Source: an archaeon (GTDB lineage Archaea > Nanobdellota > Nanobdellia > Woesearchaeales > GW2011-AR9). Taken from it: a stretch of 33,303 nucleotides of DNA. The stretch covers positions 1 to 33,303 of the forward strand of contig JAGVMW010000114.1 in assembly GCA_020053615.1 (NCBI GenBank), given 5' to 3'. Below the pieces are notes generated by a model, which worked only from the letters and a program-made list of their open reading frames with translations, was not told where the DNA came from and ran no database searches. Each line of letters begins with the position of its first letter. Position 1 is the stretch's first letter. Shown one piece after another: positions 10,498 to 33,165 of this stretch. The position numbers were made by a program, and so were the translations under genes.

Positions 10498-10498
10498 A

Positions 10499-13904: not shown

Positions 13905-13934
13905 CTTCTCCGCTTTTTTTCTGCGGAAAAAAAT

Positions 13935-15541: not shown

Positions 15542-15565
15542 TCTGAGGGGTCCCATATGTTATAT
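15542..15565 (+). repeat. Junction element J4, right half (TCTGAGGGGTCCCATAT-GTTATAT)
   Basis: The core CATATGTTATAT at 15554-15565 completes the junction whose left half ends at 13984. Confidence 0.65.
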
Positions 15566-19226: not shown

Positions 19227-19395
19227 GGTCGGGTCGGCAAACAGGGGTTTACAGGAATTTTACTCGGCTCGTAAAATTCCCAAATGTCAATCCAGCTCTC
19301 AAAAATTTCTCAGCTCTGATTTTTGTGGGCTACCTCAAAAATCGAGGAGAAATTTTTGGAGGGATTGCCACTTCTGTAAACCCCATACGTTAAAC
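19227..19395 (+). repeat. Junction element copy A2: 166-nt structured repeat plus core CATAC-GTTAAAC
   Basis: It matches 118-283 except at 19325-19336. The closing base pair of the apical hairpin is swapped relative to copy A1 (G19325/C19336 versus C216/G227). A TTTTTATATT box at 19193-19202 lies about 25-30 nt upstream. Confidence 0.8.
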
Positions 19396-19399
19396 TCAA

Positions 19400-19434
19400 T
19401 AAAATTTCTGTTAGACTAAACTTAAGGGGTGCTT
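19400..19434. repeat. Left arm of the inverted repeat flanking the GIY-YIG/Mrr/Zn-ribbon block
   Basis: TAAAATTTCTGTTAG (19400-19414) and GGGGTGCTT (19426-19434) are exact reverse complements of 20913-20927 and 20900-20908. Confidence 0.85.
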
Positions 19435-19477
19435 ATTTTCTAATGGTTTGTAAGATAGCTTTGTAAAGGTCGAAAGA

Positions 19478-19487
19478 TTTTTATAGG
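19478..19487 (+). promoter_or_regulatory. TATA-box-like element (TTTTTATAGG)
   Basis: It lies about 25-30 nt upstream of the ATG at 19510. Confidence 0.4.
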
Positions 19488-19509
19488 TAGTTAAGAGTTA
19501 ATATATAAA

Positions 19510-20052
19510 ATGGAAATTAAACAAATATTAGATAAAATTGAATCAAATAAAAGCATACAACAATTTCCAAAAACCTCTGGAATTTATGTAATGTATGCAA
19601 AAAATAACATTATTTTTGATTTTATTACAATTAATAAAGGAGAAATAATATATATTGGCAAAAGTGAAAGTTCATTATCTGATAGAAAAACAAAACAACA
19701 TTTTAGTTCTGAAAGTACTGGTCGGTCAACTGTGAGAAGAAGTTTAGGTGCTATCCTAAAAAAAGAATTTGATATAAAATGTTTTTTAAGAGGTAAAGGA
19801 AAATCTAAAAATGATTCTAATTGTTATATATTTGATAAGGAAAGTGAAATCAGATTAACTAATTGGATGAATGAAAATATTTCCATGTCTTTTTTTGTCA
19901 CAAATAATCCAGAAGAAATAGAAGTTAGGTTAATTGCAAAATATAATCCTATTCTAAATCTAAAAGAAGCAGAACATAATTTTATAACACATATCAAAGA
20001 TTTAAGAACTAAATGTAAAGATGAAGCTGAACAAAATGGTGTCTTGAAATGA
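19510..20052 (+). CDS. GIY-YIG nuclease-domain protein
   Basis: SGIYVMYAKNN...EIIYIGKSESSLSDR fits GIY-x(n)-YIG, followed by a conserved Arg region (RSTVRRSLG). Confidence 0.6.
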   Translation: MEIKQILDKIESNKSIQQFPKTSGIYVMYAKNNIIFDFITINKGEIIYIGKSESSLSDRKTKQHFSSESTGRSTVRRSLGAILKKEFDIKCFLRGKGKSKNDSNCYIFDKESEIRLTNWMNENISMSFFVTNNPEEIEVRLIAKYNPILNLKEAEHNFITHIKDLRTKCKDEAEQNGVLK

Positions 20053-20723
20053 ATCCTAAAGAATATGAAGAATATATTGGCGAATATTTCAAAAATAAAG
20101 GGTATGATATTAAAGTAACTTCTTTTACAAATGATTATGGTGTTGATTGTTTTGCTTCAAAAGGAAAAGAAAAGATTGCAGTACAAGTAAAAATGTATGG
20201 TGAGGGTATTAGACCTGTAAATAGAAAAATGATGATGGAATTATATGGTGCAATGCACTATTTTGACTGCAATAAAGCAAAACTTGTAACAAATGGCAGA
20301 ATATTAGATGATGCCAAAGAAGTTGCAGATAAGTTAGGTATTGAAATATTATATGTCGAAGCAGTTGAAAATCATAATTCTAAAACGAAAATAGATGAAA
20401 CTTCTTTTGAATTTATCTGGGAAAGATATATCTTGCCATTAAAAGGAAAAACATTAACTAGAACTAATGGAGATACAAATATAATAAAAGATGTGGATTG
20501 GAGCGGAATAAAAAGAATAACTTCAAATGGCAACACTGCAAAAATAGATATTGAGATTTTCAAACAAGTTATTAACCACTTAAGGAAAAATGGAGAAATT
20601 TCTCGCAAAGAAATCAATGATGATTATTCAGGTAGAGCTTCATCTGGAATATGCTTAATATTATCACAAGTTCCTTTTATTCAATATCACAATAGTCCTT
20701 CAAAATTAATTTGGAGAAAATAA
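20049..20723 (+). CDS. Mrr-cat type restriction endonuclease domain protein with an unknown C-terminal domain
   Basis: YEEYIGEYFKNKGYDIKVTSFTNDYGVDCFASKGKEKIAVQVKMY fits the D...(Q/E)xK PD-(D/E)xK core of Mrr_cat. The start overlaps the upstream stop as ATGA. Confidence 0.65.
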   Translation: MNPKEYEEYIGEYFKNKGYDIKVTSFTNDYGVDCFASKGKEKIAVQVKMYGEGIRPVNRKMMMELYGAMHYFDCNKAKLVTNGRILDDAKEVADKLGIEILYVEAVENHNSKTKIDETSFEFIWERYILPLKGKTLTRTNGDTNIIKDVDWSGIKRITSNGNTAKIDIEIFKQVINHLRKNGEISRKEINDDYSGRASSGICLILSQVPFIQYHNSPSKLIWRK

Positions 20724-20724
20724 A

Positions 20725-20901
20725 ATGGTTCAAATTCCTTGTCAAAATTGCGGAAAGATGTATCCTGAAGAATGGTCTTGGTATAGCTGTAATAAATGTG
20801 ATTATAGAATTTGTCAATCTTGCATTTCCAAACATAAAGGTAAATATGGAAGCGGTTTCAAATGTAGTCAATGTACATTTGGACAAATGAAACGAAAATA
20901 A
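20725..20901 (+). CDS. 58-aa double zinc-ribbon protein (four CxxC pairs); not in the supplied ORF track
   Basis: My manual translation gives MVQIPCQNCGKMYPEEWSWYSCNKCDYRICQSCISKHKGKYGSGFKCSQCTFGQMKRK. The ATG lies 1 nt after the upstream stop. Confidence 0.5.
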   Translation: MVQIPCQNCGKMYPEEWSWYSCNKCDYRICQSCISKHKGKYGSGFKCSQCTFGQMKRK

Positions 20902-20927
20902 GCACCCCACGACTAACAGAAATTTTA
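20900..20927. repeat. Right arm of the inverted repeat flanking the GIY-YIG/Mrr/Zn-ribbon block
   Basis: AAGCACCCC (20900-20908) and CTAACAGAAATTTTA (20913-20927) pair with the left arm. The arm overlaps the Zn-ribbon stop codon. Confidence 0.85.
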
Positions 20928-20950
20928 CTTTGAATTTTTGCCTTCGACAT

Positions 20951-21000
20951 CGTTGCACTAAAATTCAATCCTAACGGAGAGTTTAACAGCGATGTTATAC
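20951..21000 (+). repeat. Junction element J7 (CGTTGCACT ... TTTAACAGCGAT-GTTATAC)
   Basis: CGTTGCACT (20951-20959) matches the S1 block of J3 and J4. AACAGCG plus GTTATAC (20985-21000) match the core. It has the same orientation as the other junctions. Confidence 0.6.
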
Positions 21001-21175
21001 TCAATATTTTAATCACCTTTTCAGGCACGCTGTCGCTTCCGTAAATCTTACGCATTGGCACCTTCGCTAAATCGGCAACGACGACAAAACGAAATTCAAT
21101 TACTTCGTAACTAAACCTAACGATGATTTAGCGGTTCACTCCATTCTCCCAAATTTTCGCTAACATAAACTAATA

Positions 21176-21238
21176 GGGGGAGTTCTAAACTTTCTGACAA
21201 CTAACTTTGACGAGGGGGGAGTTCCGTGACGACGAGAA
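21176..21238 (+). repeat. S2-type block (GGGGGAGTTCTAAAC ... GGGGGGAGTTCCGTGACGACGAGAA) next to the 3' end of the large minus-strand block
   Basis: It resembles 3738-3800 (GGGGGGAATTCCGTAACGA...GCGAGAAAAC). It is also the inverse, with one mismatch, of ACGGAATTCCCCC at 32898-32910. Confidence 0.55.
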
Positions 21239-21257
21239 TAAGTGCTTTTCAGATTGA

Positions 21258-21509
21258 CTAAATGCTTCCTTGATGCACAAGAATTACAGCACCACCAGAT
21301 ACTATAGTTCTAAGATTTCCCACCTGACGCTGGAAGATTTCACTGCCATTAAAAAATGCAGCGTGTCCGTGAGGGCTACCAATATTTGGATAACCATAGA
21401 TTACATCAGTCCTTACACCACTAGCTGAACCACGATCATTCCAATTGAACCAACCGTCGTTTGTGCGAATACTATTATTTTGGTACATATCTGAACTCTT
21501 TATGAGCAT
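21258..21509 (-). CDS. Hypothetical 83-aa Gly/Asn-rich protein
   Basis: Its start overlaps the stop of the Cas4-like gene as TAATG. I recognise no motif. Confidence 0.4.
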   Translation of the reverse strand: MLIKSSDMYQNNSIRTNDGWFNWNDRGSASGVRTDVIYGYPNIGSPHGHAAFFNGSEIFQRQVGNLRTIVSGGAVILVHQGSI

Positions 21510-22183
21510 TACTTTTTAATTATTTCGCAAGAATTCTGAACCCATTCACAAAACCCACATTCTTCAGAGGGAGCGGGAATTTCAGCTTCTAAAACTTGAA
21601 CAACTTTCTTAAAAATATTCTCGGCGTTCTTGATATTAACTTTAATCTTGATTAAATCCTTATGGAAGTCTACATCACCATTCTCATGGACTTTGCTAGG
21701 ATGGTAAAATAATAGATAAGTATAATCCTCTGTCTCATAGCCATTCTTTCGTAAGAGAAAATTGTAGATATCCATCTGGTCTTGATAATGCTCGTGCGTA
21801 TCTTCTTTTAATGGGTAGCCTCTGGTTTTATAATCTAAAACAATCAGTTTCTTTCCCTTTTGGAGCAGATTATCAATAGCTCCATGAAAGAGATTACCTT
21901 TTTTATCAGTCCATGGTATTCCTTTGAAATTGCTTCTCCAAACTTTGAGGAGTTCTTCATTGTCAAAGAGCTTTACTTCACCTTTTAATTGTTGAAGTTC
22001 TGGAGGCAATTCTCCTCTTTTCATAAAGCGGTCAAAATGTTCTTTGAGAATTTTATCCATTCCACTCGGAAGAGATGGGAAAATGGAATCTGGACGTTTA
22101 ATGTTCTTGTTTAAAGCAAGCCAGAAACATCTAGGGCAATCTTTCAGTAAGCTTAGGCTTGATGGGCTGAATTTGTAGGTCAT
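21509..22183 (-). CDS. Cas4/RecB-like PD-(D/E)xK nuclease with a Cys cluster
   Basis: Motifs are GAIDNL, VLDYKT and QDQMDIY (QxxxY). Cysteines occur at CPRC (N-terminal) and CGFCEWVQNSC (C-terminal), as in Fe-S Cas4/AddB-type nucleases. Confidence 0.75.
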   Translation of the reverse strand: MTYKFSPSSLSLLKDCPRCFWLALNKNIKRPDSIFPSLPSGMDKILKEHFDRFMKRGELPPELQQLKGEVKLFDNEELLKVWRSNFKGIPWTDKKGNLFHGAIDNLLQKGKKLIVLDYKTRGYPLKEDTHEHYQDQMDIYNFLLRKNGYETEDYTYLLFYHPSKVHENGDVDFHKDLIKIKVNIKNAENIFKKVVQVLEAEIPAPSEECGFCEWVQNSCEIIKK

Positions 22184-22184
22184 T

Positions 22185-25100
22185 TTACGAAATAAAATCT
22201 AAAGTTATTAATCTTAATTTCTTCTCATCAAACTCGTCTAAGCCTTCTTTTTCATAAACCAGCTTATCCGAAACAAAATTAGTAACATCTACAATTAGTT
22301 TTTTCCAATTTTTATGTCCTTTTCTATAATTATTCCAAACTTTTCTAATAATTTGAATCCTCTTCTTAGTTAAACTAATGTTAACTAATTTCTTTCTAGT
22401 CTCTTCCCATTGTTTTTCTAATGCATTATCTTCCGGAAAATCTAAAATGTAATCCTCTATATCTCTCTCTATTTCGATAATTAATTGGCTCAGAAACTTT
22501 TTACTTCTTTCCTTACTCCAATCCTGTTGTTTTGTATCTGCTTCTTCCTTTACTCGTATTGAATTATATGTTTCTTTAATATCTTTAAGAATATTGGTGT
22601 TAATATCATATACTTCCTCGAAAAATTTAGGAATAACTCTTTTTTCGCTCTCTTTACAAGAAATAAATTGAAGTATTTCGGTTTTGTTCTTAATTGATTT
22701 TCTCGATTCTAAATCATGCAAATACCAGAAATGGAAATCTTCTCCATATTCATAATAAAAGAAAATTCCCCTAATACTTTTTTTAATCAAACCACTATGA
22801 ATCCCATCAGGCAGGTTTTCTAATTCTTTCATTGAACTTTTCTTGAGGTAAGTTTTCAATGGCTGATAAAAAACTTCTCCTCCACCAAATACGTCAGCTT
22901 CCAATTCATCTAAAACTGAAGATTCTTTATCTTTTATCCTCCTGATTACTCCAAAAACTTTAGGATGGATTTTTTCACCCAAAACAGTCTGATCTAATCC
23001 TACTGACTTATCTATATTGATTATTTTGTTTTGAAGAATGTTAACTAATTTTAATAATTCTTCTAATTCATCTTCTGGGAAGAAATTGTAAATATATATT
23101 TTATCATATAATGAGCCAATCCTGTCAATTCTACCTGCCCGCTGAATCATTCTTGTTGGATTCCAATGCAAATCATAATTTATTAAAATTTGTGCGGTCT
23201 GTAAGTTTTGTCCTTCTGATAATACATCAGTGCTTAGAAGAATGTCTATTTCTTTGTTTTTAAATCGTTCTATAATTTTTTGTCTGTCTTTTGGTGTAAA
23301 ACTGCCAGAACCAGAGATTTTTTGAAGCTTGATGTTTTTGAATTCTTTTTGTTTAGAAAGATAATCATAAACATAATCTAAAGTATCTTTGTAATAAGTA
23401 AAAACTACAATTTGGCTTTTTTCGTGTAATTTCAATAATTTATCTTTAAATTCAAGTAATTTTGCATCTTTATCAGGAGTTAAGTTCTTTATTTTTTCTA
23501 ATATACTCCCTAATAGTTGAATATCAATTTTAATGTCTTTAAACATCTCTTCTTTATTGTAATTATTTATGTTGAATTTATCTAATTGTGCTAGTATCTC
23601 CTGTTCAATTTCTTCTGAATCTTCCTCAAAGTCTTCATCTTCGGCAAGTATATATTTTATTAGTTTAGTATAAGCTTGTTTAGATAAGAATTTTCCTTCT
23701 TCTAAACAATTCATCATTGTCTTTAAGAACTTGATATGACGACTAACGCTAATCCTGAATGCCTCAATACTGCTTTCTAGTCTTTTTAGAAGAATTGTTT
23801 TGAAAATACCGCCTATGGCAATCATACGATTTAAAGCCAAGATTTCTTCTTGCGTTTGCAAATTTTCTTTTTTATATCTAAGAATATTATAATAAGCCAT
23901 AGTCAGCTTTTCGGATATTATGTCCGCAATTTCGCGATACATCCCTTGGTAAGTTTGATTCAGTTTGTAATTGATTGTTTCTAGCTTCCTATCTGGAAAT
24001 GTTATTTTCTGCCCATTAACTGTTGCATTAGGATACTCTTTTTTAATATAATCTCTGGTTCTTCTGATAGAAATTTCATTTAGTAAGTCGTTTAATAATG
24101 CAGGATTGCCTCTCTTATCAATTTCTTTAAAATGGACAAATAAATCAGGAATGTTCTCTTTTATGAATGTTGCATTATCATTTCCAACAAGAAGAAGAAT
24201 CTGTGAATACAAATCCCAAATAGAATTATTGATGGGTGTGGCAGTCATAAAGAGAATTTTAGGTTTTTCACCGTTTTCTTTTGTGATAAACTCAATTAAT
24301 GTGTTCATGTTCTCCCACCTGTTAGAGAGTTGATTTCTAAGATTATGGCTTTCATCAACAATTATTAATTCTACTTCTTCTAAATGCCCGCCAGTGGCAG
24401 TTTTTGCTTTATCTAAGAAGTCTTTAGAAGCTAAATTTTCTTGTGAAAGAATATTTTCAGTAAGTTGCTTATCTTTCAATGCGGGAAGCCACATTGTTTC
24501 CTTTAATTGTGCCGGACAGATAACTAAGCATCTCTTTCTTCTAAAAAAACCAAATTCTTCTAATACTTTAAGCGCAATATATGTTTTACCTAAACCAACC
24601 GAATCAGCAACCATGACTGCCCCATATTTTTTTAAACGTGAGAAGACTCTTTGAACAGCATCACTTTGAAATTCGGTTAATTCAACATTTGAAATACCAC
24701 TTTTGTCTTTCTTTTTTTCTTCTTCCTCTGATTCTGCGGCTATTTCATCTTTTTGCAGTTCATAAAGTGATTTTATATAAATTTGAAATGGAGTGTATTC
24801 TGTAGTTCCAAATCTTGAATTTTTGAGTAAAGTGATTAATTGCTCTTTAAATTCTAAAGATTCTTTCCAGAATTTATTGAACCAGTTTTCTCTACTATAT
24901 TCAACAAACATTTTACCCTGCTGAACAGTGTTATATTCTCCTTCTCTTGTAAGCCCAGCATAAGTAAAATTGGAAGAGCCACTAACCACTAATTTATCAA
25001 AAATATAAGTTTTTCCATGCAATAGGTTTTTGTCATAAATTCTGATTTCCACATTATGTTTTTCTAAAAAAGTAATTAAATCAGTAACATGGTCTTTCTT

Positions 25101-25391
25101 TTCTTTTGTAAGACCTAACTCTGCAATTTCTGTTTCTACTACTTTCAGCAGGGCTTTTCCTAAAGTCTGATTGTTATCCGTAAGTTCGGGGGATTTTCCA
25201 AGAAGCAAGCGAAATTTAGTAACTCCTTCTAATTTTTCTTTAACCAAAGCATACCCCTCCACGTTAAAGAATGCGGTAGCAATATCTAAATTAGTATTGG
25301 GATCTAAATGGAGAACTTTGTTTAGGAAAACAGACAGTTTTATGTTGTTGTTATCAACAATGTTTTCGTCAATCATCATTTGAATACCCAT
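22185..25391 (-). CDS. PLD-nuclease domain fused to an SNF2-family helicase
   Basis: The N-terminal LLHGKTYIFDKLVVSGSSN is an HxK..D..GSxN PLD motif. SNF2 motifs are GLGKT, IVDESHNLRN, TATPINN, LSEGQNLQ and QRAGRIDRIG. The likely start is the ATG at 25379, in an ATGA overlap with the upstream stop. Confidence 0.9.
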   Translation of the reverse strand: MGIQMMIDENIVDNNNIKLSVFLNKVLHLDPNTNLDIATAFFNVEGYALVKEKLEGVTKFRLLLGKSPELTDNNQTLGKALLKVVETEIAELGLTKEKKDHVTDLITFLEKHNVEIRIYDKNLLHGKTYIFDKLVVSGSSNFTYAGLTREGEYNTVQQGKMFVEYSRENWFNKFWKESLEFKEQLITLLKNSRFGTTEYTPFQIYIKSLYELQKDEIAAESEEEEKKKDKSGISNVELTEFQSDAVQRVFSRLKKYGAVMVADSVGLGKTYIALKVLEEFGFFRRKRCLVICPAQLKETMWLPALKDKQLTENILSQENLASKDFLDKAKTATGGHLEEVELIIVDESHNLRNQLSNRWENMNTLIEFITKENGEKPKILFMTATPINNSIWDLYSQILLLVGNDNATFIKENIPDLFVHFKEIDKRGNPALLNDLLNEISIRRTRDYIKKEYPNATVNGQKITFPDRKLETINYKLNQTYQGMYREIADIISEKLTMAYYNILRYKKENLQTQEEILALNRMIAIGGIFKTILLKRLESSIEAFRISVSRHIKFLKTMMNCLEEGKFLSKQAYTKLIKYILAEDEDFEEDSEEIEQEILAQLDKFNINNYNKEEMFKDIKIDIQLLGSILEKIKNLTPDKDAKLLEFKDKLLKLHEKSQIVVFTYYKDTLDYVYDYLSKQKEFKNIKLQKISGSGSFTPKDRQKIIERFKNKEIDILLSTDVLSEGQNLQTAQILINYDLHWNPTRMIQRAGRIDRIGSLYDKIYIYNFFPEDELEELLKLVNILQNKIINIDKSVGLDQTVLGEKIHPKVFGVIRRIKDKESSVLDELEADVFGGGEVFYQPLKTYLKKSSMKELENLPDGIHSGLIKKSIRGIFFYYEYGEDFHFWYLHDLESRKSIKNKTEILQFISCKESEKRVIPKFFEEVYDINTNILKDIKETYNSIRVKEEADTKQQDWSKERSKKFLSQLIIEIERDIEDYILDFPEDNALEKQWEETRKKLVNISLTKKRIQIIRKVWNNYRKGHKNWKKLIVDVTNFVSDKLVYEKEGLDEFDEKKLRLITLDFIS

Positions 25392-25882
25392 CCCTCTTTT
25401 CTAAACATTTCAATCAAGAATATGCATTCAATACCATATTCTTGGCATACATAAGGAACTTTAGTTTTTTTACCACTTATTCTTTCTTCTGAAACAACTA
25501 TTCTTTTTTTTATTGTTTCAATTAATGTTTTTTGAGCGTCTGCCTCCATCTCAATAGCAAGCGCAATAACAAAAGGATCTGCAATAGGAACCATACTATC
25601 TTCATTTAACCATTTAGGATATTTGGCTAATAATTCTTGAACAATTTGGATCTGTCTAGGTGTTAAATCTTTAAACAGCTTTGTCTGTTTTTTAGACCAT
25701 TCTTTCAGGTGGTCGTCTCCCCTTTCAATTTCTTTTAAAACTTCTTTTGGTGAAACTAAAAATCCACTTTCAATTAACGATTCTATTTTTTGCCAAACAG
25801 GAGGAAAAATATCTATGGGATACTTTCTATTTAACTCTATCAGTGAACATGAATCTATCACATAGTAATTTATGGATGTCAT
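25376..25882 (-). CDS. DUF4411 (PIN-like) protein
   Basis: YVIDSCSLIELNRKYPIDIFPPVWQKIESLIESGFLVSPKEVLKEIERGDDHLKEW matches the DUF4411 pattern. It has a 4-nt overlap with the upstream ImmA gene. Confidence 0.75.
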   Translation of the reverse strand: MTSINYYVIDSCSLIELNRKYPIDIFPPVWQKIESLIESGFLVSPKEVLKEIERGDDHLKEWSKKQTKLFKDLTPRQIQIVQELLAKYPKWLNEDSMVPIADPFVIALAIEMEADAQKTLIETIKKRIVVSEERISGKKTKVPYVCQEYGIECIFLIEMFRKEGWVFK

Positions 25883-27018
25883 TTGGAAGTCCTTTTTATT
25901 ACTTTTTCAAAATATTTGGTTTTTATTGATAGATAACTCAATGCATCGCTGTATGTGATAAATCCTTTATCCATGTTATCAGCAACCAAAGAAGGTAGTT
26001 TATGCCCTAATTCTGCAATGCATTTCTGGTCTTGAGTTCGCGGATCAACGATTTTGTGTTTTCCTTCAGCTTTAACGGGTATAGGTCTCTCCAGAATTGA
26101 TTTGTAGATTGATTGAGTAATAAAATTAAGATTAAACATATTATAAACAAGCATCGCTTTACTGACTTTGTATTTTCTTTTTAGTGTATTTAACGTATTT
26201 GTTTCTGTTAATGATTCTTTTTTCTGTGAAAATACTGAATTTGCCAATTCTGCTGGAAGTAAGAAATTTGACGCAAACAGGTTACACCATTTCTCAATCT
26301 TATCCTGTGTTTGAAATTCCGTTAAAGAGATTGCAGTCTCTCCAAGTAAAACATGCCCAAACTCGTGCATCAATGTAAATATTCTAGCTTCAATCTCATC
26401 CTGAGAGTTGGTCACTACAATTTTAGGATCTTTATCTGATAACGCAAAACCTCTTGCATCTTCTATGGGCATCGATATTTGAAATGAATAAATGTTTTTC
26501 TCTTCAAGCATTTCTCTTAAATAAGAATATACTTTGTAGGCATCTTTTAATTCAGTGGTTTGCTTTTCTACTGAAAAAAATAATAGTTCCCTATACTTAG
26601 TTGCTATCTGCTGCGGGTTATCCGTAATTTTATGTAATGTGATTTTAGGTTTCAAATCATTTTCAATATTTATGGCAAGCTCTTGGATGATTCCCTGTAA
26701 ATATCTTGCTTTTCTAATTGCCAAAATTGTCTTTTTGTTAAATTTTCCTTCTTTTCCTGGAAGCATACGGTAATCTTTTGGTTTTGGCTTCTCTTCAGGC
26801 GCTTTGGGCAGGAAGAATACAGCTAAAGGTCTTTTTAATTTATCTGCAAGAGCTTCTAATTGTTTTATGGTAATATTTCCTTTTAACCAATCTTTATATA
26901 TTGCTTCAGAAATATTTAGTTTTGAAATTAGTTCAGACTCATCCCAACCGGAAGTACTGATTGCCCATTTGATGACTTCAGGCTTTATTTGTATTTTTAC
27001 GGGTTTAGTTTTTGGCAT
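25879..27018 (-). CDS. XRE-type HTH fused to an ImmA/IrrE (M78, COG2856) metallopeptidase
   Basis: The zinc site HEFGH occurs in LMHEFGHVLL. The N-terminal HTH region reads ELISKLNISEAIYKDWLKG. Confidence 0.8.
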   Translation of the reverse strand: MPKTKPVKIQIKPEVIKWAISTSGWDESELISKLNISEAIYKDWLKGNITIKQLEALADKLKRPLAVFFLPKAPEEKPKPKDYRMLPGKEGKFNKKTILAIRKARYLQGIIQELAINIENDLKPKITLHKITDNPQQIATKYRELLFFSVEKQTTELKDAYKVYSYLREMLEEKNIYSFQISMPIEDARGFALSDKDPKIVVTNSQDEIEARIFTLMHEFGHVLLGETAISLTEFQTQDKIEKWCNLFASNFLLPAELANSVFSQKKESLTETNTLNTLKRKYKVSKAMLVYNMFNLNFITQSIYKSILERPIPVKAEGKHKIVDPRTQDQKCIAELGHKLPSLVADNMDKGFITYSDALSYLSIKTKYFEKVIKRTSK

Positions 27019-27075
27019 TTTGTACCTTGTAAATGTAATATTCTTTATGGTTATCTGTACTTTGTATATTAAAGT

Positions 27076-27570
27076 TTATATTGTTTTTCTTATCAAAGCG
27101 ATTAAGTAAGTATAAACCATATGTCCTGACTCAGCCACTTTTATCTTTAGTTCTTGTAACTTAGTTCTATCTGCAATTAAATCAATTTTAAATCTATTAT
27201 CTGACTTATTATTTATTCTTCTTAATTTTATTTCGATAATAACATAGGGATTATTAAAGCCATATCCTTTTGAGGGTAGAGGAAAATGCCCGCCCTTCTT
27301 TGTTATGAGTTGGGAGACATCAAAAATAACAATATCTGATCTGCACTTTAACTTTTTAGAGCGACCATACCACCTAACTTCACAATGCACCGGAATTGAT
27401 TGCTGATTATCTTCTGTTTGTTCCAAACCGTTAAAATCAGCAAGAAGTAAATGATAAAGATAGGCTCTAACATCTTCTTCAGTTAAGAATTTATCAGGAG
27501 TAGCTTTAAATTCATCTATTAAAGTATTAATCTTTTGTTCTACTTTTACTTTGATTTGTTGATTTTCCAT
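27076..27570 (-). CDS. Hypothetical protein with a PD-(D/E)xK nuclease-like motif
   Basis: HCEVR...RSDIVIFD...PYVIIEIKLRR fits E...D...ExK spacing. The call rests on the motif alone. Confidence 0.4.
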   Translation of the reverse strand: MENQQIKVKVEQKINTLIDEFKATPDKFLTEEDVRAYLYHLLLADFNGLEQTEDNQQSIPVHCEVRWYGRSKKLKCRSDIVIFDVSQLITKKGGHFPLPSKGYGFNNPYVIIEIKLRRINNKSDNRFKIDLIADRTKLQELKIKVAESGHMVYTYLIALIRKTI

Positions 27571-27572
27571 CT

Positions 27573-28112
27573 TTAACTCAATAGCCCAAAAAACAATGGT
27601 ACGTATTTTAGGGATATACCTGCCACTATTTTCAGTAGTTCAAGAGCATTTTCTCCGCTTTCTTTTAGGGTATTAAATTTTTCTAGTATATTAAATAAGC
27701 CCTTTTTCTTTTCTGAGTCTAATTCAGAGTCTTGCTCTATCATCTGTTTTAAAATGTAATGTTTTGAGTTGTTAATTACAATGGTATTACCGTCTCCTGC
27801 GGATTGAACTACATTCCCAATTGAAGAGTTTATTATCTGTTGAGATATGTTCTGGTCAATATCAACTAACGGTCTTTTGCCACAGGCGATTTCTAAACCT
27901 TTGGCAGTAACTTTATTCCAAATCATGCCTACAAGACCTCTTGCCAGAGTTTCTGTGTATTGAACCGCTCCAATTTCTTTAAGATATTCAAGAACATCAC
28001 ACACTTCTTCTTCATTAATCTTTAATTTTTCAGGAAGTTCTTCTACTTTGATTCTATCATCAGCTAATAATTTCAATACCGGTTCAGCTAAATGTATGGT
28101 TTTGGCATTCAT
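27573..28112 (-). CDS. Hypothetical protein with a possible N-terminal wHTH and a hydrophobic C-terminus
   Basis: EEVCDVLEYLKEIGAVQY is wHTH-like. The C-terminal IVAGISLKYVPLFFGLLS is hydrophobic. The gene is tightly packed in the operon, with 1-2 nt gaps. Confidence 0.45.
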   Translation of the reverse strand: MNAKTIHLAEPVLKLLADDRIKVEELPEKLKINEEEVCDVLEYLKEIGAVQYTETLARGLVGMIWNKVTAKGLEIACGKRPLVDIDQNISQQIINSSIGNVVQSAGDGNTIVINNSKHYILKQMIEQDSELDSEKKKGLFNILEKFNTLKESGENALELLKIVAGISLKYVPLFFGLLS

Positions 28113-28113
28113 T

Positions 28114-28938
28114 TTATTTTTTAAACAGTTCTCTTATATCTTTACTTCCAACTAGCTTTACGTTGTTAAAATGTTGGGGGTATTCTTCTCTAGTTAAAGT
28201 TATTAAATAATTAACCATGTACCATTTCAATCCATTATTCTCACTTTTCGCATTTGCTAAATGAATATAAGCATTTCTTGATTCCCTAATAATGTCTAAA
28301 CAATTATGTTTGTTAATATAACTATACTTTTTTAAGTATCTTTTGCCTTTTGTACCAACTAAAGCCGGAGTTTTATCGATTTTATATTTTTGAATAAAAG
28401 AAAGATAACCTTCCTTAAGAGATTTATTAGACGCATGGAATAGTTTAATACATTCATGAAATTTGAATGTTTCTGAGGAGAAATTTGAACTAATATCTTT
28501 CTTTGCATCATAATAAATCTTATTTAATTTGGATTGGGTTAATTGTGAGATTTTATTTAATTTATCCAATTTCATGGTGTATTTCTGAGAAAATTTGTTT
28601 GACAACATTTTGTTCAAACCAGTAAAAACACCATTTTTTCTGTCAAGCCCAACACACCTATCGGTTTTGTTTATAATGAAATTTCTTTTAAGTAAGATGA
28701 GTTTGACTAAGTGTTCTGCAGTTGAACCAATTAAATTCATTTTCTGAAGATGATAAGCTCTTGATTGGTAAAATTTCTGTTTTTGTCCTTGATTATAGGA
28801 AACAACTTTTTTATTTAACAAAATTTTGACTAATTTAAGATTTTCTTTGATTAAAGCTATATAAGTATCTACTACTATTGGTTGATATAAAAGTATATCA
28901 AATTTATCTTTCGAAATTTCCCATTGTTTTAGTTTCAT
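28114..28938 (-). CDS. Hypothetical helical protein with an RNxxxH motif, possibly HEPN (Abi_2/AbiD-F-like)
   Basis: IIRESRNAYIHLANA contains Rx4H in the RNxxxH form seen in several HEPN RNases. An upstream helix reads GSTAEHLVKLILLK. The call rests on the motif alone. Confidence 0.4.
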   Translation of the reverse strand: MKLKQWEISKDKFDILLYQPIVVDTYIALIKENLKLVKILLNKKVVSYNQGQKQKFYQSRAYHLQKMNLIGSTAEHLVKLILLKRNFIINKTDRCVGLDRKNGVFTGLNKMLSNKFSQKYTMKLDKLNKISQLTQSKLNKIYYDAKKDISSNFSSETFKFHECIKLFHASNKSLKEGYLSFIQKYKIDKTPALVGTKGKRYLKKYSYINKHNCLDIIRESRNAYIHLANAKSENNGLKWYMVNYLITLTREEYPQHFNNVKLVGSKDIRELFKK

Positions 28939-31900
28939 TTTTTCAAACTCGTCGCTTTGTTTAATCTTTGCTGTACTAACTCACAGACAGCCCAATATAC
29001 TTCTTTTCTTTCTTCTTTGGTTAATCCCAATTCATCAAAGATGATATTGTCAAGTTCTGCTCGGTCTGGAAGAGGCTTTGGCTCTTGTTCACGGATGGGT
29101 TTGGTGGGGTCGATGCCGAGTTCTTCAAATATTGATTTTACTTCTCTTGTAAAAAATTTATTAATATTATATTTTGAAAAATTCAATTTTTGGAGCGATA
29201 CCATTGGGATTTTATTAGCATCCATTGTAGCTAAATCCAGAGCACCCTGACCTAAATTTGAACGTCCATAAATTTCAATAAATAAAGCAGTAAATGTAGA
29301 GTTAAGAAGTAATGAAAAGTACTTTGGATTTACTTCTTTTTTTAGTTTTATCATGTGAAAGCGACGGTCACTTAATGCTTTCTTTTCCGAATATGGATGA
29401 ATAAACCGGTCATTATACCCATATAACATAAAGCAATTTGTGAACTCAACATTAGAAATAGACCACCAGCCCGGTTTTCTATTTACTACGGTTGGAACTT
29501 CTGGCCATGGGATTCCTGCTTTGACTTTACCTTTCTCTTTTGTCTCTTGTCTCTCTCCCCATTCTATATACTTTAAAGCATTGTTATGGTCCTTTGATTT
29601 CAGCGAGTTCTTAGATTCATTACAAATAAAAACAAATTTTTTGTTGATATATTTATTTAAACTAATGCACTTAACATCCTGAGGAGATTTAATCAATGGG
29701 ATAAGATAATCAGTCTCAATTTTCCATTTTTTTACTTGTTCTTCGTTCAAATAAAAGAAATCATTTATCCCGCTGTAAAGTCCCGTATCCACTTTACCGT
29801 ATAATTCTTTTAATACTCCAACATCCTTCTTACTGAGTATACTAAAAACTATGTCTGGAGAACGCAAGAACTTACTCCCCCACTTATTTCCTTCATAACT
29901 CCCTTTGCCAAACCTTCCATTTTCATACCCTTCTGGATATTCCCAACCATCTTCCAGCAAATCTTCCTGATTAATGGGATAAACCCTAAACTCATTTGTT
30001 TTCAGTATCTTCTCTGCTTTCTCAATCTTAACCAGATTAGCCGCATTAACCACTTCCTCAAATGGCTTCTTGAACATCACAAAGCGAGCAGTTTGACTAA
30101 ATCCAGAATATGTCGCTTTTCCATTGCCATTATACTCAGCGCCATACTCAAATAATGATTTTTGCTTGCCAATTACCGGCGCACCCAAAAGTGCAATAAT
30201 TGTATTTACATCAGCATGCTCAAAGCTTCGTTTGGCTTGATTGTCATAAATTCCAATAACGTGCGAATATCTTAACAAAAACTCCTGCAACCCCTTCCCA
30301 TAACCCACATCCAGCCAAGAATTAGAGGTAATAAAACAAAACACTCCACCAGAATTAAGCAAACTCAATCCGTGAAAGTAAAAATAGACATACAAATCGC
30401 TTTTCTTATCCCAATCAATAACGACAGGAAACCTATTTTGAACGGATTTAATCAATTTCTCTTTATATCCTCGTCTATCTTCAAGTGTAACCTCTTCTTT
30501 AAGCTTATTTGGCGGAGCAATCTTCTCCTGCCGCACATACGGCGGATTGCCAATCACAATATCAAACCCGCCTTCATCTGCAAATACTTCCGCAAAATCA
30601 ATATCCCAAACAAATGGTTTCTTGGCAGGATCTTTCAATAACTCTTTTACTTTCTTTAATTTCTCAATTTCATCAGCACATTCTTTTATCCGGTTTTCAA
30701 GCTCAATTAAATTCTTCTTCTCTTTTTTGATATTCTCCGCATCAATATTAACTGAAGCGCCAAATAAGCCCGTTTGCTTCTCTTTCTTACTTGAAGAATG
30801 GGTTAAGACTTGAATATCAGTCTCTAATGATTCTATCCGTTCATTCAAAATCTCTTCAAATAATCTAACCTCTTGCACTTTAAACTCTTCTGGAGTCTTA
30901 TATTTTGCTGAGGGAGAATTTTCAAAATATCTTCTTTTCTCATTTTTCAACTCTTCCAGTTTTTTCTTTAAATGCGGCTTCAGATTATTGCTTCGCACAT
31001 TAAAGCTGATTCCACCAATTTCCTGCACTAATGAATCACCAACACGCAGATTCATGTTTAAATTTGGTAATAACGGATGTTTCCTTAATTCTTCATCTTT
31101 AAATTGTGTTTCCACAATCAACTGAAGCCATAATCTTAATTCTGAGGCATGAATTGCCCAGGGCATGACATCTACCCCATATAGAGAACGTTGGATTATC
31201 CTATACTTTAATTGGAAGTCGCTTAAGCTAGAACCAATATGCTTAAACACAATTTTATACAATTCTACCAAGACATTAAGCATCCCTACTAAAAATGCCC
31301 CCGAACCACAGGCAGGATCAACAATAGAAAGATTATCCAACGCTTCCTCTATTTTACCCCAGCATTTACGCTGATTGAACTTCTTCTCAATTTTCTCTTT
31401 ATCTTCATCAAATACAAACTCGTATAATTCCTCTTTAGGTATCTCTAAATTCTTTCCTAGATACTCTACTAAAGACCTTCGACACATAAAATCTACTTCT
31501 ACTTTAGCAGTATAGAATATACCCCAATCCCCACGCAAATCTTCTTCATTTTCATAAACATCCTCTGTAATATTAGCCAGAGACTCATAAACATAACCAA
31601 TCATTTGAGGATCAACGGAGACTTCTACATCTAATACAGAATCTTCTTTGATGGTAAAATTGTAGCTTTCGAAGAAGTCAAATATCTCTTTAAAGAGATT
31701 ATCAGATATGTTTATCTTTAAGTCGTCTAACCCTATTTTTTTAGTAAATAAGCCGCCATTAAGATAGGGACTATTTGACAATATTTTATTTACTTCCTCG
31801 GGAAGTTCAGGATGATAACTGGATTTATTATTAAAAGCCTCAAAGAACAGAGGTTTTAACCATTTATCATAAAATTCATTATTTCCATATTTACTAATTC

Positions 31901-32672
31901 GTTTATATAAATCCCAATATGCCTGCATAAATTTTCTATCTTTATTCAGCCATTCTTTCTTAGCTATAAAATAAATGAACATAATTCTATTCATAAATTG
32001 TAATGTAAATTCATGGGCTATTTTCGGGTCTACCTTCTGTTTTTTGAGTTCTTTTCTCACCACTAAAAATAGTCTTTGATAATCCTCAAAAAATTTCTTA
32101 GTAACTTTCTGAACATCAAACGCCTCTTTCCATAACCGCCAGAGTTCTCGCCATGTTTTCTTTTGGTCTTCCAGAAATATATTGCAAATTATCTCAATAT
32201 CTGTATAATAAAGCTCATCTTTTTTCAATATTAATGTGGTTGTTTTAAGTTTATGTTTTCCTACCTCCTGCTTTTCGTAATCTGGAAACACAATATGTAT
32301 CTCTTTATAATCGATTGTAATAATTAAGAGACATCGCGTGTACATTTCAGCGAATTTGTTTGCGATATATCGCATAAGAGGCTTACTAAGAGAGTTAGTT
32401 TCAATTAAGAAGACATTGAGTTTATCATAACTCATAACTGTGTAAATTGTTTTAATTTTGTCTCGTTCTTCACTGGCAAAAGAAAATTCTTTTATCTTTT
32501 TAACATAAGATGAATCAAAAATTGCTTCTTTTGGATAATTTAGACTCTTAAACAAACCATATATATCCTCTGAATTCTTTATGAAAGAGATATAATCTTT
32601 AACTTTCTTTCGGAGATCTGAATTATTATTCACTTTTCCCGCCCCCTCTTCTCTAACTCTGCTTCCATGCAT
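28935..32672 (-). CDS. Large N6-adenine DNA methyltransferase, Eco57I/type IIG- or PglX-like
   Basis: Motif I is IVDPACGSGAFLVGML and motif IV is VIGNPPYV, with a coiled-coil insert between them and a long C-terminal region. I could not identify a clear N-terminal nuclease motif. The more likely start is the GTG at 32633, in a GTGA overlap with the RHH-2 stop, rather than the ATG at 32672. Confidence 0.8.
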   Translation of the reverse strand: MHGSRVREEGAGKVNNNSDLRKKVKDYISFIKNSEDIYGLFKSLNYPKEAIFDSSYVKKIKEFSFASEERDKIKTIYTVMSYDKLNVFLIETNSLSKPLMRYIANKFAEMYTRCLLIITIDYKEIHIVFPDYEKQEVGKHKLKTTTLILKKDELYYTDIEIICNIFLEDQKKTWRELWRLWKEAFDVQKVTKKFFEDYQRLFLVVRKELKKQKVDPKIAHEFTLQFMNRIMFIYFIAKKEWLNKDRKFMQAYWDLYKRISKYGNNEFYDKWLKPLFFEAFNNKSSYHPELPEEVNKILSNSPYLNGGLFTKKIGLDDLKINISDNLFKEIFDFFESYNFTIKEDSVLDVEVSVDPQMIGYVYESLANITEDVYENEEDLRGDWGIFYTAKVEVDFMCRRSLVEYLGKNLEIPKEELYEFVFDEDKEKIEKKFNQRKCWGKIEEALDNLSIVDPACGSGAFLVGMLNVLVELYKIVFKHIGSSLSDFQLKYRIIQRSLYGVDVMPWAIHASELRLWLQLIVETQFKDEELRKHPLLPNLNMNLRVGDSLVQEIGGISFNVRSNNLKPHLKKKLEELKNEKRRYFENSPSAKYKTPEEFKVQEVRLFEEILNERIESLETDIQVLTHSSSKKEKQTGLFGASVNIDAENIKKEKKNLIELENRIKECADEIEKLKKVKELLKDPAKKPFVWDIDFAEVFADEGGFDIVIGNPPYVRQEKIAPPNKLKEEVTLEDRRGYKEKLIKSVQNRFPVVIDWDKKSDLYVYFYFHGLSLLNSGGVFCFITSNSWLDVGYGKGLQEFLLRYSHVIGIYDNQAKRSFEHADVNTIIALLGAPVIGKQKSLFEYGAEYNGNGKATYSGFSQTARFVMFKKPFEEVVNAANLVKIEKAEKILKTNEFRVYPINQEDLLEDGWEYPEGYENGRFGKGSYEGNKWGSKFLRSPDIVFSILSKKDVGVLKELYGKVDTGLYSGINDFFYLNEEQVKKWKIETDYLIPLIKSPQDVKCISLNKYINKKFVFICNESKNSLKSKDHNNALKYIEWGERQETKEKGKVKAGIPWPEVPTVVNRKPGWWSISNVEFTNCFMLYGYNDRFIHPYSEKKALSDRRFHMIKLKKEVNPKYFSLLLNSTFTALFIEIYGRSNLGQGALDLATMDANKIPMVSLQKLNFSKYNINKFFTREVKSIFEELGIDPTKPIREQEPKPLPDRAELDNIIFDELGLTKEERKEVYWAVCELVQQRLNKATSLKK

Positions 32673-32779
32673 TTCTCAAACTGACGAGAAACTATCCAGC
32701 CTTCTTTTTTGCATAACTCCCTATAGGTATCATACAATTTTGAATTAACTTTCAAAGTGATATTCTTACTCTCTTCCAT
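32630..32779 (-). CDS. Ribbon-helix-helix small protein RHH-2, a paralog of 13511-13663; not in the supplied ORF track
   Basis: My manual translation gives [49 protein letters not shown]. In my alignment 40 of 44 core residues are identical to RHH-1. The gene is preceded by GAGGGAATGA. Confidence 0.7.
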   Translation of the reverse strand: MEESKNITLKVNSKLYDTYRELCKKEGWIVSRQFEKCMEAELEKRGREK

Positions 32780-32849
32780 TATCATTCCCTCTAACTAGAT
32801 TAATAATAAATAACTGCACATACTTATAAAGATTACTATGCTGAAACTC

Positions 32850-32953
32850 TTCTCGCCCCCAACGACTTAAACTGAACTCCCTACTAACAACAAAACTACG
32901 GAATTCCCCCACGACGAACGACTAAAATAATGTCTGCTTCGCAGTAATTGATT
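32850..32953 (+). repeat. Leader-type (S2) repeat upstream of RHH-2 and the methyltransferase
   Basis: TTCTCGCCCCC (32850-32860) and ACGGAATTCCCCC...CGAACGACTAAAATAATGTCTGCTTCGCAGTAATTGAT (32898-32953) are near-identical to 13799-13853. Confidence 0.8.
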
Positions 32954-33060
32954 GATGATTCATTAAAAAACTACGGTAGCCCCTAACTCGCTCAGAAACA
33001 AAGTTTCTGGCGTGCAAGAAAAATCGCTGTTTTTCTTCGCATCTCAGCGCTGAAAAAACT

Positions 33061-33165
33061 CTGCGCACTGCGGTGCTTGCCCCGCTGCGCTCTCACTCCA
33101 TTTTTATGTCCTGCGGGACTAAAAATTCCGTTCGGGTCGAGAAACAGCGCACGCATATGTTATAT
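33061..33165 (+). repeat. Junction element J9 (GC-rich block, CGGGTCGAGAAACAGCG, core CATAT-GTTATAT)
   Basis: GCGCTCTCACTCCATTTTTATGTCCTGCGGGACTAAAAATTCCGTTCGGGTCGAG aligns with 19176-19236. The core lies at 33154-33165. Confidence 0.7.

Follow-up and report, generated by a model that had tools for sequence, protein, structure and literature searches.

Two defence operons as probable large antisense cassettes of an integron-like array in a Woesearchaeales contig

Introduction

Archaeal integrons and clusters of attC sites lacking integrases (CALINs) have been described (Ghaly et al. 2022, PMC9668308), and the supplement of that study includes Woesearchaeales genomes in its list of attC carriers; defence cassettes accumulate in sedentary chromosomal integrons (bioRxiv 10.1101/2024.07.02.601719; PMC12614218). 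Small regulators that precede toxic cargo are also documented, namely the helix-turn-helix (HTH) C proteins of type II restriction-modification (R-M) systems and the ribbon-helix-helix (RHH) repressors omega (omega-epsilon-zeta) and PaaR (paaR-paaA-parE), which belong to toxin-antitoxin operons of three genes (PMC3874152). Integrons in archaea, integron cassettes that carry defence genes and R-M systems led by a controller are all known already. Here, we analyse a 33,303-nt stretch of a Woesearchaeales assembly (GCA_020053615.1, contig JAGVMW010000114.1), referred to as the window, in which a type I R-M operon and a second large defence operon (block 2) are each headed by a gene for a small RHH-like regulator (RHH-1 and RHH-2).

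The window resembles an integron in several respects. Its cassettes are separated by folded, variable imperfect-palindrome sites with AAC...GTT ends, its GTTA-box boundaries are consistent with a G|TT crossover, and its cargo is rich in R-M, toxin-antitoxin-like and defence genes, with reverse cassettes that carry their own promoters. We consider it probable that the window is a portion of an integron-like gene-cassette array in which the R-M operon and block 2 constitute one very large antisense cassette each.

Results

Repeat boxes delimit each defence operon as a single unit

Using a repeat finder, blastn and direct reading, we found that the intergenic regions of the window share one common repeat family, composed in order of a ~40-nt block (gggACGyTGCaCTyTCGCTaCGCTCgg), yyAAC-AG, a variable stretch, (C)GAT or ATAy, and GTTAxAy. 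The GTTA boxes of this family lie at 280, 928, 3559, 15559, 19389, 20994 and 33159, the site that closes the R-M unit being split (13976/15559), and delimit the units listed in Table 1. The R-M operon and block 2 each form one large unit with GTTA-box bounds, antisense to the array; the two defence cassettes measure 10.4 and 12.2 kb and are reverse-oriented. Plus-strand units display purine-rich and TTTATATA-type boxes ~25-30 nt before their start codons, with the look of an archaeal transcription factor B recognition element (BRE) and TATA box.

Only two sites of the window are intact (118-283 and 19227-19392); both are 166 nt long, between AAC and GTTA, and they are 96% identical. Spurious open reading frame (ORF) calls cover them (98-322 and 19148-19393). 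In related loci and contigs from the genome collection and from metagenomes, which carry L numbers here (W denotes window coordinates), many sites have 76-126 nt between the same AAC and GTT ends, with intact sites in L004, L014, L017, L019, L024, L031 and L034. The attC-like geometry was assessed by eye and by folding, and a regular-expression search returned 27 matches, versus 7 in shuffled sequence; by our own reading, the structured sites among the matches in related loci are antisense to the RHH gene, with one exception. When 11 sites were folded as single-stranded DNA (ssDNA), 8 gave z-scores of -4.4 to -6.8, and nearly all adopted a common fold, in which a TAAC/GTTA base carries a bulge of 2 nt and a stem of 11-13 bp, together with two inner hairpins and the conserved linker CCCAAAT. 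The stem sequence differs between sites, yet complementarity is kept. Conserved structure combined with variable sequence and conserved AAC...GTT ends is the hallmark of attC, and on this comparative evidence we regard the sites as attC-like. The 166-nt repeat was also considered as a miniature inverted-repeat transposable element (MITE); this was rejected because homologous, covarying structures occupy the same AAC-GTT position in other genomes.

The ends of similarity between independent loci coincide with these boxes. For the R-M tail, the similarity shared by the window, L006, L037 and L002 starts at GTTA(AAC/GCC/GCA)AAAATTTTCTTACTGCC (W 3555-3566), the upstream DNA being unrelated, and it starts at W 3555 in L071 and at W 3559 in L081. 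On the head side, L002 and L010 continue through ...CTAAC-AG...-GTTA and then diverge, while L052 (98.9%) and L056 (95%) track the R-M flank as far as W 13980, beyond which each has an intact attC-like site. At block 2, similarity with L063 begins at W 20994, and the same AAC-AG...GAT-GTTA ends are found in the intact sites of relatives; on the other side, L059/L061 match W 32663-33149 at 83.9% overall, with a near-identical flank stretch, and, 244-370 nt away from the flank box described below, have an attC-like site that is intact. These break points argue for recombination at the G|TT of the R' box, and not for an element that ends at the flank boxes. The block boundaries would accordingly fall at 3559/3560, 15559/15560, 20994/20995 and 33159/33160, with G|TT as the presumed position within the box, by analogy with integrons; 20994/20995 would thus be the left boundary of the block-2 cassette. 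A cassette would start just after the G of GTTAxxx and end with an attC-like site, yTAAC-AG...GAT/ATAy-G.

At the ends of the two defence blocks, no more than 6-25 nt separate AAC from GTT in the window sites: AGCAACTGCGAC, AGCGAT, AGCGCACGCATAT (within the truncated closing site of block 2, GAGAAAC-AGCGCACGCATAT-GTTATAT, where the crossover would lie at 33159/33160), and AGCGGAAG and TCTGAGGGGTCCCATAT on either side of an insertion sequence (IS). They appear decayed, since L052, L056 and L059/L061 hold an intact site at the same position. We also tried to read the short sites (e.g. GTATAAC-ACATAC-GTTATAC) together with their upstream block as canonical attC hairpins; most of these regions fold no better than shuffled sequence, and the short sites are better described as internally deleted 60-170-nt sites.

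Heads and tails of the two operons are homologous

The initial annotation of the window had attributed the same flank logic to both operons: boxes inverse to each other with one mismatch at the ends of block 2, in a pairing weaker than that around the R-M operon, and right flanks homologous over about 450 nt, so that two unrelated methyltransferase-led operons would share one head module. Direct reading bears out the inverse boxes, GGGGGGAGTTCCGT (21214-21227) and ACGGAATTCCCCC (32898-32910). The pairing is indeed the weaker one, gapped alignment of the left flank with the reverse-complemented right flank giving z = 1.1, as opposed to z = 3.9 for the R-M operon; about 0.05 13-mer pairs with at most one mismatch are expected by chance between two ~260-300-nt flanks. 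What makes the block-2 pair convincing is that the box recurs in the R-M block and in related loci. The same G-rich box (G5 box) flanks the R-M operon (3738-3751 / 13799-13812), is found at -300 to -80 upstream of the RHH gene in 14 of 41 related loci (background, 0.009 per 220 nt), and has inverted copies at the far block ends, 3.6-9.8 kb downstream, in L013, L014/16, L018, L020, L022 and L031.

Homology of the right flanks extends beyond the RHH gene, as annotated, but it is not uniform and resolves into patchy collinear islands. Pairwise alignment, the repeat finder and blastn delineate an island in the RHH coding sequence (13521-13654 versus 32634-32767, 86%) and one in the promoter/operator (13677-13711 versus 32803-32837, 89%). 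The annotated near-identical stretch of ~50 nt, hereafter the junction stretch, was recovered at 13799-13852 versus 32898-32952 (94.5%, E = 4.6e-18), including GGAATTCC and the mini-hairpin CTGCTTCGCAG (13834-13844 / 32934-32944). Similarity between 13511-13984 and 32630-33165 is thus not confined to the RHH coding sequence. Between the islands and beyond 13853/32953, only short motifs can be aligned (AAAAACTACGG, CCCCGyTGCrCTCTC and TCGGGTCG..AACAGCG), so that the 450 nt amount to a patchy parallel. Aligned directly, the whole right flanks give z = 18.9. The left flanks, absent from the initial annotation in this respect, are homologous too: 3564-3797 matches 21001-21238 over ~235 nt (z = 11.6), taking in an attC-half-like stretch (TAAC..GATTTAGCGGTTCACTCC...CCCAAAT) and the G5 boxes.

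The shared end logic of the two operons therefore stands, but the inverse boxes are not private operon ends; each is the outermost box of a palindrome arm around an attC-like site. The sites of other cassettes are likewise abutted by inverted repeats specific to the cassette: 289-308 / 840-859 (by eye, as the scored comparison used the wrong flank), 947-986 / 3401-3465, and 19400-19440 / 20894-20927, besides 3566-3751 / 13799-13907 around the R-M operon. For block 2, the outer inverted repeat is weak (~21018-21031 / 33011-33025, by eye). For c2, c3 and c6, the cognate arm pairs greatly outscore shuffles as well as non-cognate pairs. The R-M tail arm contains TTTTTACTTACTTTAA (3716-3731), G6AATTCCGT (3738-3751) and GGGGGGGCGAGAAAAC (3785-3800), and has inverted matches to 13892-13904, 13854-13869 and 13799-13812. 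That of block 2 is 80-90% identical to the L014/16, L063 and L076/80 tails and contains the weak outer inverted-repeat piece, an attC-half-like stretch (TAACGATGATTTAGCGGTTCACTCC...CCCAAAT) and G5AGTTC boxes at 21176-21185 and 21214-21227. Its head-side counterpart beyond the junction stretch contains AAAAACTACGG, T-rich hairpins and a conserved block in front of the R'' box (pre-R'' block, 33079-33145) with an inserted hairpin (33100-33129).

We propose that each cassette carries two arms of a long imperfect palindrome around the site, one at its start and one at its end, with G5-6A(A/G)TTCCGT as the outermost conserved arm box of the cassette family. This would explain why the box lies inverted at the two ends of an operon, and why the tails of the two cassettes are homologous, as are their heads. 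In an excised circle, the arms would be adjacent and could lengthen or stabilise the folded recombination hairpin; the T-rich hairpins of the arms could insulate transcription. In L028:469-700 and L076:5613-5790 (= L080), a head arm is fused straight to a tail arm in one long palindrome with no central attC-like site. This suggests central deletion of a junction palindrome, and the same process may have shortened the window sites.

The shared head has two separable parts

Although both operons have homologous heads, the head is not one module and separates into a promoter-plus-RHH unit and a junction arm. A survey of head copies and their cargo, as suggested by the initial annotation, was run on the genome collection and the metagenomes; it yielded many copies with varied cargo, in which the RHH part and the junction part are not always together. 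The metagenome scan used the pattern ACGGAATTCCCCC-N1-4-ACGAACGAC and found 34 loci. In 9 of them an RHH gene lies 96-135 nt inside the box, in the other 25 there is none, and in 10 of the 34 an attC-like site starts 144-244 nt outward of the box. In L004, a forward one-gene cassette is flanked 5' by G5AGTTC boxes and 3' by ACGGAATTCCCCCC-ACGAACGAC. Because of this cassette and of the 25 copies with no RHH gene, we regard the junction stretch as a generic cassette-end (3') arm and not as part of an RHH module.

Scanning the genome collection with the two RHH proteins, which share 85% amino-acid identity, retrieved 48 loci, mostly in metagenome-assembled genomes (MAGs) labelled Woesearchaeota, Nanoarchaeota, Pacearchaeota, and other DPANN or unclassified archaea; a few carry Methanosarcinales or bacterial labels, on short contigs. 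About 45 loci have in common a ~200-bp promoter-plus-RHH segment (W 13519-13716 / 32623-32837), whose similarity stops at both edges (13519-23/13711-20 and 32623-36/32837). At the 3' end of RHH-2, DNA similarity to other loci ends at a GGGGCGGGAAAAG box (32623-32636). The operator box overlapping the TATA element (AAyATTTATAARTATGTGynnwTATTT) is kept in ~40 loci from different MAGs, in diverged surroundings. A viral source found no support, as scans of IMG/VR gave neither RHH relatives nor the junction pattern.

Different cargos follow this unit. Type I R-M genes lie behind it in L001-3, L005, L008, L019, L022, L027, L031 and L034, and HKD-SNF2 plus IIG methyltransferase genes in L004, L007, L014, L016-18, L028 and L044, with the helicase first and 27-32% identity to block 2. 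Other loci have GmrSD (L031), RhuM (L021), Fic (L006) or a Schlafen-type helicase (L020). Cargo led by a methyltransferase, as annotated, is thus true of both window operons but not of the family, given the helicase-first loci and the RhuM and Fic cargos. The last gene of block 2 and its tail arm are common to other RHH cassettes with different cargo: its Cas4-like nuclease (Pfam PDDEXK_1, 7e-13; PADLOC Cas4) is 71-88% identical in amino acids to the last gene of the RHH-led L004, L006, L007 and L021. The counterpart in L076/80, in whose sequence no RHH was found, is ~87% identical in nucleotides.

One related locus shows the R-M cassette of the window elsewhere. L002 (Candidatus Woesearchaeota MAG JACPNA010000050.1, 9700-11100) carries it at 92.6% identity over 1030 nt, with the same arms in an unrelated context. 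There, an internal deletion fuses HsdM residue 189 to the final 68 HsdR residues, and the tail box is the variant ACGGAATTCCACC.

The RHH unit as a predicted controller

Because the operons are antisense to the array, they would require a promoter of their own, and the ~200-bp unit would deliver an archaeal TATA promoter, an overlapping operator and an RHH-like repressor gene. We infer that the RHH protein is a repressor or controller of the operon: it is predicted to bind the box over the TATA/start region and to autorepress the whole operon. In a naive cell, this would allow a transient burst of expression followed by a low steady level, a controller-type route to establishing toxic R-M or defence cargo. 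The sequence pattern ITLKV...EGWIVSRQF, read by eye, is compatible with a ribbon-helix-helix, and a PDB sequence-profile search gave a weak Arc match (E = 0.012). The AlphaFold2 model has a disordered N-terminus (residues 1-11) and helices at 12-25 and 33-49 (mean predicted local distance difference test score, pLDDT, 69.7). An Xre-type HTH fold was not recovered, no HTH match being found in profile searches.

In L052:1-430, a winged-HTH gene (MarR/ArsR-like by eye) occupies the RHH position, with a similar TATA box and a flank 98.9% identical to the R-M head arm. Small regulators thus seem interchangeable at this slot. L040:250-392 is unusual in orientation: its attC-like site is co-oriented with the RHH gene, the G5 box is absent, and the RHH promoter begins ~60 nt beyond the GTTA box. 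Forward orientation is thus open to RHH cassettes as well.

A GGGGCGAGAAAA(C) box is found at the inner end of the R-M tail arm (3785-3800), just upstream of the RHH promoter (13713-13723) and at 13521-13532, as well as in many loci. The copy at 13521-13532 falls in the final codons of the RHH gene (RGRE) and immediately precedes the start codon of the first cargo gene, so that boxes bracket the RHH unit. We considered them as a target duplication; more simply, GGGGCGAGAAAA is probably a strong ribosome-binding consensus, as it stands a few nucleotides before start codons in many loci. It may also act as a recombination junction.

Observations that weigh against the cassette assignment

Several results speak against reading the window as an integron-like array with controller-led cassettes. 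The bounding sites of both defence blocks are too short to fold, so that the cassettes may be immobile fossils, and the short-site regions mostly fold no better than shuffles. Canonical attC architecture includes neither the extended arms nor the 40-nt block 5' of R'', and the block-2 inverted repeat, taken alone, is statistically weak and near chance (z = 1.1). Scans of the window for tRNA genes and with Rfam at the gathering threshold, which has no attC model, returned nothing; the window has no rRNA, tRNA or core genes, the archaeal host being inferred from relatives. Support for the regulator fold is modest and below threshold: the RHH family RepB-RCR_reg was matched by 21 of 34 members (best E, 5e-4, below gathering) and RHH_5 by 3, and neither Foldseek with the AlphaFold2 model nor the PDB profile search gave a convincing RHH match.

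A recombinase is likewise missing from the window, where only a 151-aa SAM-like N-terminal fragment was detected and where no IntI integrase with its additional domain lies beside an attI and the array. In related loci, Xer-like tyrosine recombinases stand directly beside the tail of RHH blocks (L016, L005) or ~1.5-2.8 kb upstream of the RHH gene (L012). The best NCBIfam match of the complete L016 recombinase is XerA_Arch ('tyrosine recombinase/integron integrase'), with 203.7 bits against a cut-off of 220, and it scores 168 bits against the integron integrase model TIGR02249, whose cut-off is 265. It has no counterpart of the ~38 aa that match the IntI-specific insert; the missing insert is a lead and not proof. 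Such arrays may rely on Xer-like recombinases in place of canonical IntI.

Other explanations of the boxes and shared ends

The best surviving alternative concerns the G5 boxes and GNA mini-hairpins, which could be protein-binding regulatory elements, activating or insulating, and unrelated to recombination. We see this as possible, though doubtful; it is compatible with the operons being cassettes. The boxes lie 114-232 nt upstream of RHH starts, often in 2-4 tandem copies interleaved with GCGAAGC-type hairpins, and in L004, L018 and L020 they also stand ahead of forward genes, in front of the promoter and ribosome-binding site. Conservation of the box among cassettes whose arms are otherwise cassette-specific also argues for sequence-specific recognition. 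However, 27 of 41 loci have no box near the RHH promoter, the head-side box of the L004 forward cassette lies downstream of the gene with no promoter following, and no candidate binding protein for the box was found.

We judge it improbable that the defence blocks are non-autonomous transposons or composites resembling MITEs, with G5AATTCCGT terminal inverted repeats on which a transposase would act in trans. Boxes are inverted at both ends of many blocks, a DDE-transposase IS resides within the array (13985-15541), and the interval from a head box to the next tail box can form a compact MITE-like palindrome (L028, L076/80). Yet similarity between independent loci runs ~110-240 nt past the boxes and ends at GTTA, and no direct repeat or target-site duplication adjoins the boxes (...aaacgact|GGGGGG versus CCCCCC|tacgaacg). 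Moreover, half-palindromes occur alone beside unrelated or degenerate sites, the ends of the window IS differ (CCGTCCC...GGGACGG), and no box-matching transposase was found.

Still harder to sustain is a site-specific invertase that acts at the inverted boxes and flips the cargo, switching it on and off or reversing its orientation. The boxes do form inverted repeats with a near-palindromic core (ACGGAATTCCGT), the G5 box...GGGGCGAGAAAAC arrangement faces inward at both ends, some tails have an inward promoter and ribosome-binding site (L018, L020), and the R-M operon contains a truncated integrase N-domain of SAM-like type. Against this, RHH-led cargo is antisense to the attC-like sites except in L040, no related pair differs by cargo orientation alone, neither block holds an intact invertase, and the boxes often come as 2-4 tandem copies at variable spacing, unlike a crossover site.

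Least credible is the view that the two operons acquired their shared head by a recent duplication within the genome or by gene conversion, so that it would have no wider meaning. This view is largely refuted by sequence comparison: the 55-nt junction is 94.5% identical between the window copies, at least as much as in most copies elsewhere, but their RHH and promoter parts are mutually only 86-89% identical, the R-M head is 92-99% identical to L002, L006, L052 and L056, the block-2 head is 84-88% identical to L008 (87.8%), L079 (84.7%) and L059, and the module is present in ~80 loci from many MAGs and metagenomes. Boundary data, near-constant orientation and closer relatives elsewhere thus disfavour the transposon, invertase and duplication explanations. 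A reading of the G5 box as an archaeal ORB-like origin element, a kappaB-like coincidence or a tRNA fragment found nothing in its support.

Gene content of the two blocks and neighbouring features

The coordinates of the features are collected in Table 1. The R-M block contains HsdM, HsdS and HsdR, hence a type I system (Pfam N6_Mtase/HsdM_N, Methylase_S and HSDR_N/SWI2_SNF2/T1RH-like_C), in the gene order RHH-M-...-R. A perfect 27-nt direct repeat, ACTTCCCAATCTTCAGGAATCATTCCT, is present at 8542-8568 and 10030-10056 and encodes, on the minus strand, the HsdS N-terminal motif GMIPEDWEV. One copy is in hsdS and the other at the junction of a YhcG-like gene and the truncated SAM-like integrase fragment, and the pair brackets two inserted genes, a 121-aa ORF and the YhcG nuclease. 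Read from the sequence, the repeat suggests insertion into, or a remnant of, a second hsdS.

In block 2, the methyltransferase matches Pfam Eco57I (3.6e-32) and PADLOC REase_MTase_IIG (2.1e-58). Nested between it and the helicase (W 25376-27018) are the DUF4411 protein and the M78/IrrE-like protein, the latter with an N-terminal HTH-like region; as far as the sequence allows, this looks like a nested two-gene toxin-antitoxin or sensor pair. Outside the two blocks, W 16860-17394 holds an in-frame, start-less fragment resembling the C-terminal part of a class-V aminotransferase/cysteine desulfurase, which runs into a 78-aa ORF (17158-17394; translation read by eye) and is probably a gene remnant within a cassette. 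The RHH locus L013 contains a transposase 71% identical to that of the window IS.

Table 1. Units and features of the window, with predicted functions and the basis of each assignment.
Feature	Coordinates	Strand	Content or basis
Nudix gene unit	281-928		between GTTA boxes
Three-gene unit	929-3559		between GTTA boxes
R-M operon unit	3560-15559		between GTTA boxes; IS 13985-15541 included
Several small units	between R-M unit and 19390		GTTA boxes
Two-gene unit	19390-20994		between GTTA boxes
Block-2 unit	20995-33159		between GTTA boxes
R-M tail arm	3560-3800	+	TTAAAC; outer inverted repeat AAAATTTTCTTACTGCC (3566-3582)
R-M head counterpart	13511-13984	+	sequence, relatives
RHH-1	13511-13693	minus	
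RHH-1 promoter	13677-13711		
R-M junction stretch	13799-13853		outer arm then to 13907
R-M pre-R'' block	13939-13976		R'' GGCTAAC at 13970-13976
DDE-transposase IS	13985-15541		ends CCGTCCC.../...GGGACGG; inside attC-like site closing R-M cassette
DDE transposase of IS, 471 aa	14056-15471	minus	Pfam DDE_Tnp_1_6/DUF772
Short, internally deleted attC-like site of upstream cassette	20981-21000	+	GTTTAAC-AGCGAT-GTTATAC; reading of sequence
Block-2 tail arm (array-sense 5' flank)	20995-21257	+	homology to R-M tail arm; relatives' tails
Conserved tail genes: 83-aa ORF and Cas4-like PD-(D/E)XK nuclease (21509-22183)	21258-22183	minus	
Block-2 cargo	22185-28938	minus	Pfam/PADLOC searches
HKD(PLD)-SNF2 helicase	22185-25391	minus	PADLOC C3a139 'HKD+Snf2' 1.3e-56; DrmD-like
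DUF4411 protein	25376-25882	minus	
M78/IrrE-like protein	25879-27018	minus	RmrA-like in PADLOC
Three ORFs with no family matches	27076-28938	minus	
Eco57I/type IIG-like methyltransferase, 1245 aa	28935-32672	minus	first cargo gene after RHH
RHH-2, small RHH-like regulator	32630-32785	minus	likely start MEESK at 32779
RHH-2 promoter/operator	32803-32837	minus	archaeal-type TATA TTTATAAG within ~27-nt box AAyATTTATAARTATGTGynnwTATTT
Block-2 junction stretch of head arm	32898-32952	+	ACGGAATTCCCCC (32898-32910), ACGAACGACTAAA, GNA-loop mini-hairpin CTGCTTCGCAG (32934-32944)
Outer head arm and cassette's own truncated attC-like site	32953-33165	+	

Discussion

The organisation of the window suggests that whole defence systems are treated as plug-in units in the array. 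If this is correct, archaea with very small genomes may trade whole restriction or defence systems as large, self-regulated cassettes on a common chassis. The RHH-like protein with its 27-nt operator, present in dozens of MAGs, would represent a controller family, while the extended arms, the G5AATTCCGT boxes and the pre-R'' block are site features that current attC finders may miss. The DNA between an RHH head and a tail arm also offers a route to mine unknown defence genes, such as the ORFs at 27076-28938.

A further-reaching proposal, which we put forward tentatively and hold to be rather unlikely, is that DPANN archaea have an undescribed cassette system, related to integrons but distinct from the classical ones, in which a Xer-like recombinase that lacks the IntI patch, three-way-junction ssDNA sites, a conserved 40-nt pre-R'' block with GCGAAGC-type mini-hairpins and cassette-borne 100-250-nt palindrome arms with G5AATTCCGT boxes at their ends together move complete 10-kb defence operons. 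In such a system, the arms would rebuild a hairpin of far greater length, and would do so only between sister cassettes or in the excised circle, and the standard chassis would consist of a tail arm, an optional Cas4-like gene, the cargo, an RHH or winged-HTH controller, and a head arm. If true, this would amount to a plug-and-play platform for defence exchange in minimal-genome organisms.

Our literature search found no paper on 10-12 kb cassettes, on an arm chassis with G5AATTCCGT boxes and GNA hairpins or on the pre-R'' block, and none on an RHH controller unit shared by unrelated DPANN defence operons or on a Xer-like recombinase there. The large cassettes, the arm chassis, the pre-R'' block and the shared controller unit therefore appear undescribed, and possibly the Xer-like recombinase as well.

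Compared with known systems, the window departs from integrons in scale and in site architecture. Integron cassettes are typically about 0.5-1 kb, whereas those of the window include 10-12 kb multi-gene operons. Sites of the window family form three-way junctions in which the linker reads CCCAAAT; a 40-nt block 5' of R'' is conserved, and outside the R boxes the sites continue into long palindrome arms, specific to the cassette, that bear G5AATTCCGT boxes. In addition, the tyrosine recombinase aligned from a related locus is Xer-like and has no IntI-specific insert, and the bounding sites in the window are truncated. The Xer-dependent pdif modules of Acinetobacter plasmids, in which toxin-antitoxin or resistance gene modules lie between short Xer sites in different contexts, are likewise discrete gene modules bounded by short sites. 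By contrast, XerC/XerD act at pdif on double-stranded sites of 28 bp that alternate in orientation, whereas the sites of the window family are co-oriented, 60-170 nt long, hairpin-forming and variable in length.

With respect to cargo, block 2 resembles DISARM and type IIG R-M systems in its large Eco57I-like N6-adenine methyltransferase, SNF2 helicase and PLD (HKD) nuclease domain. Unlike in DISARM, HKD and SNF2 are fused in one protein (the PADLOC candidate C3a139), and block 2 adds the M78/IrrE-like and DUF4411 proteins, the Cas4-like nuclease and three ORFs of unknown family. PADLOC and Pfam detected no separate DrmA or DrmB (DUF1998) protein in block 2, which matched only DrmD-like/HKD-SNF2 and DrmMI-like/IIG models. 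Finally, the RHH unit follows the logic of the C-protein, omega and PaaR systems, in that a small predicted DNA-binding protein comes first in the operon, with an operator over its own promoter and, behind it, toxic cargo whose establishment after transfer has to be safe. Unlike the helix-turn-helix C proteins, the window regulator is RHH-like, is served by an archaeal TATA promoter and heads type I R-M as well as many other defence operons; and unlike in C-protein systems, one and the same unit is combined with many cargos, with a winged-HTH gene in its place in L052.

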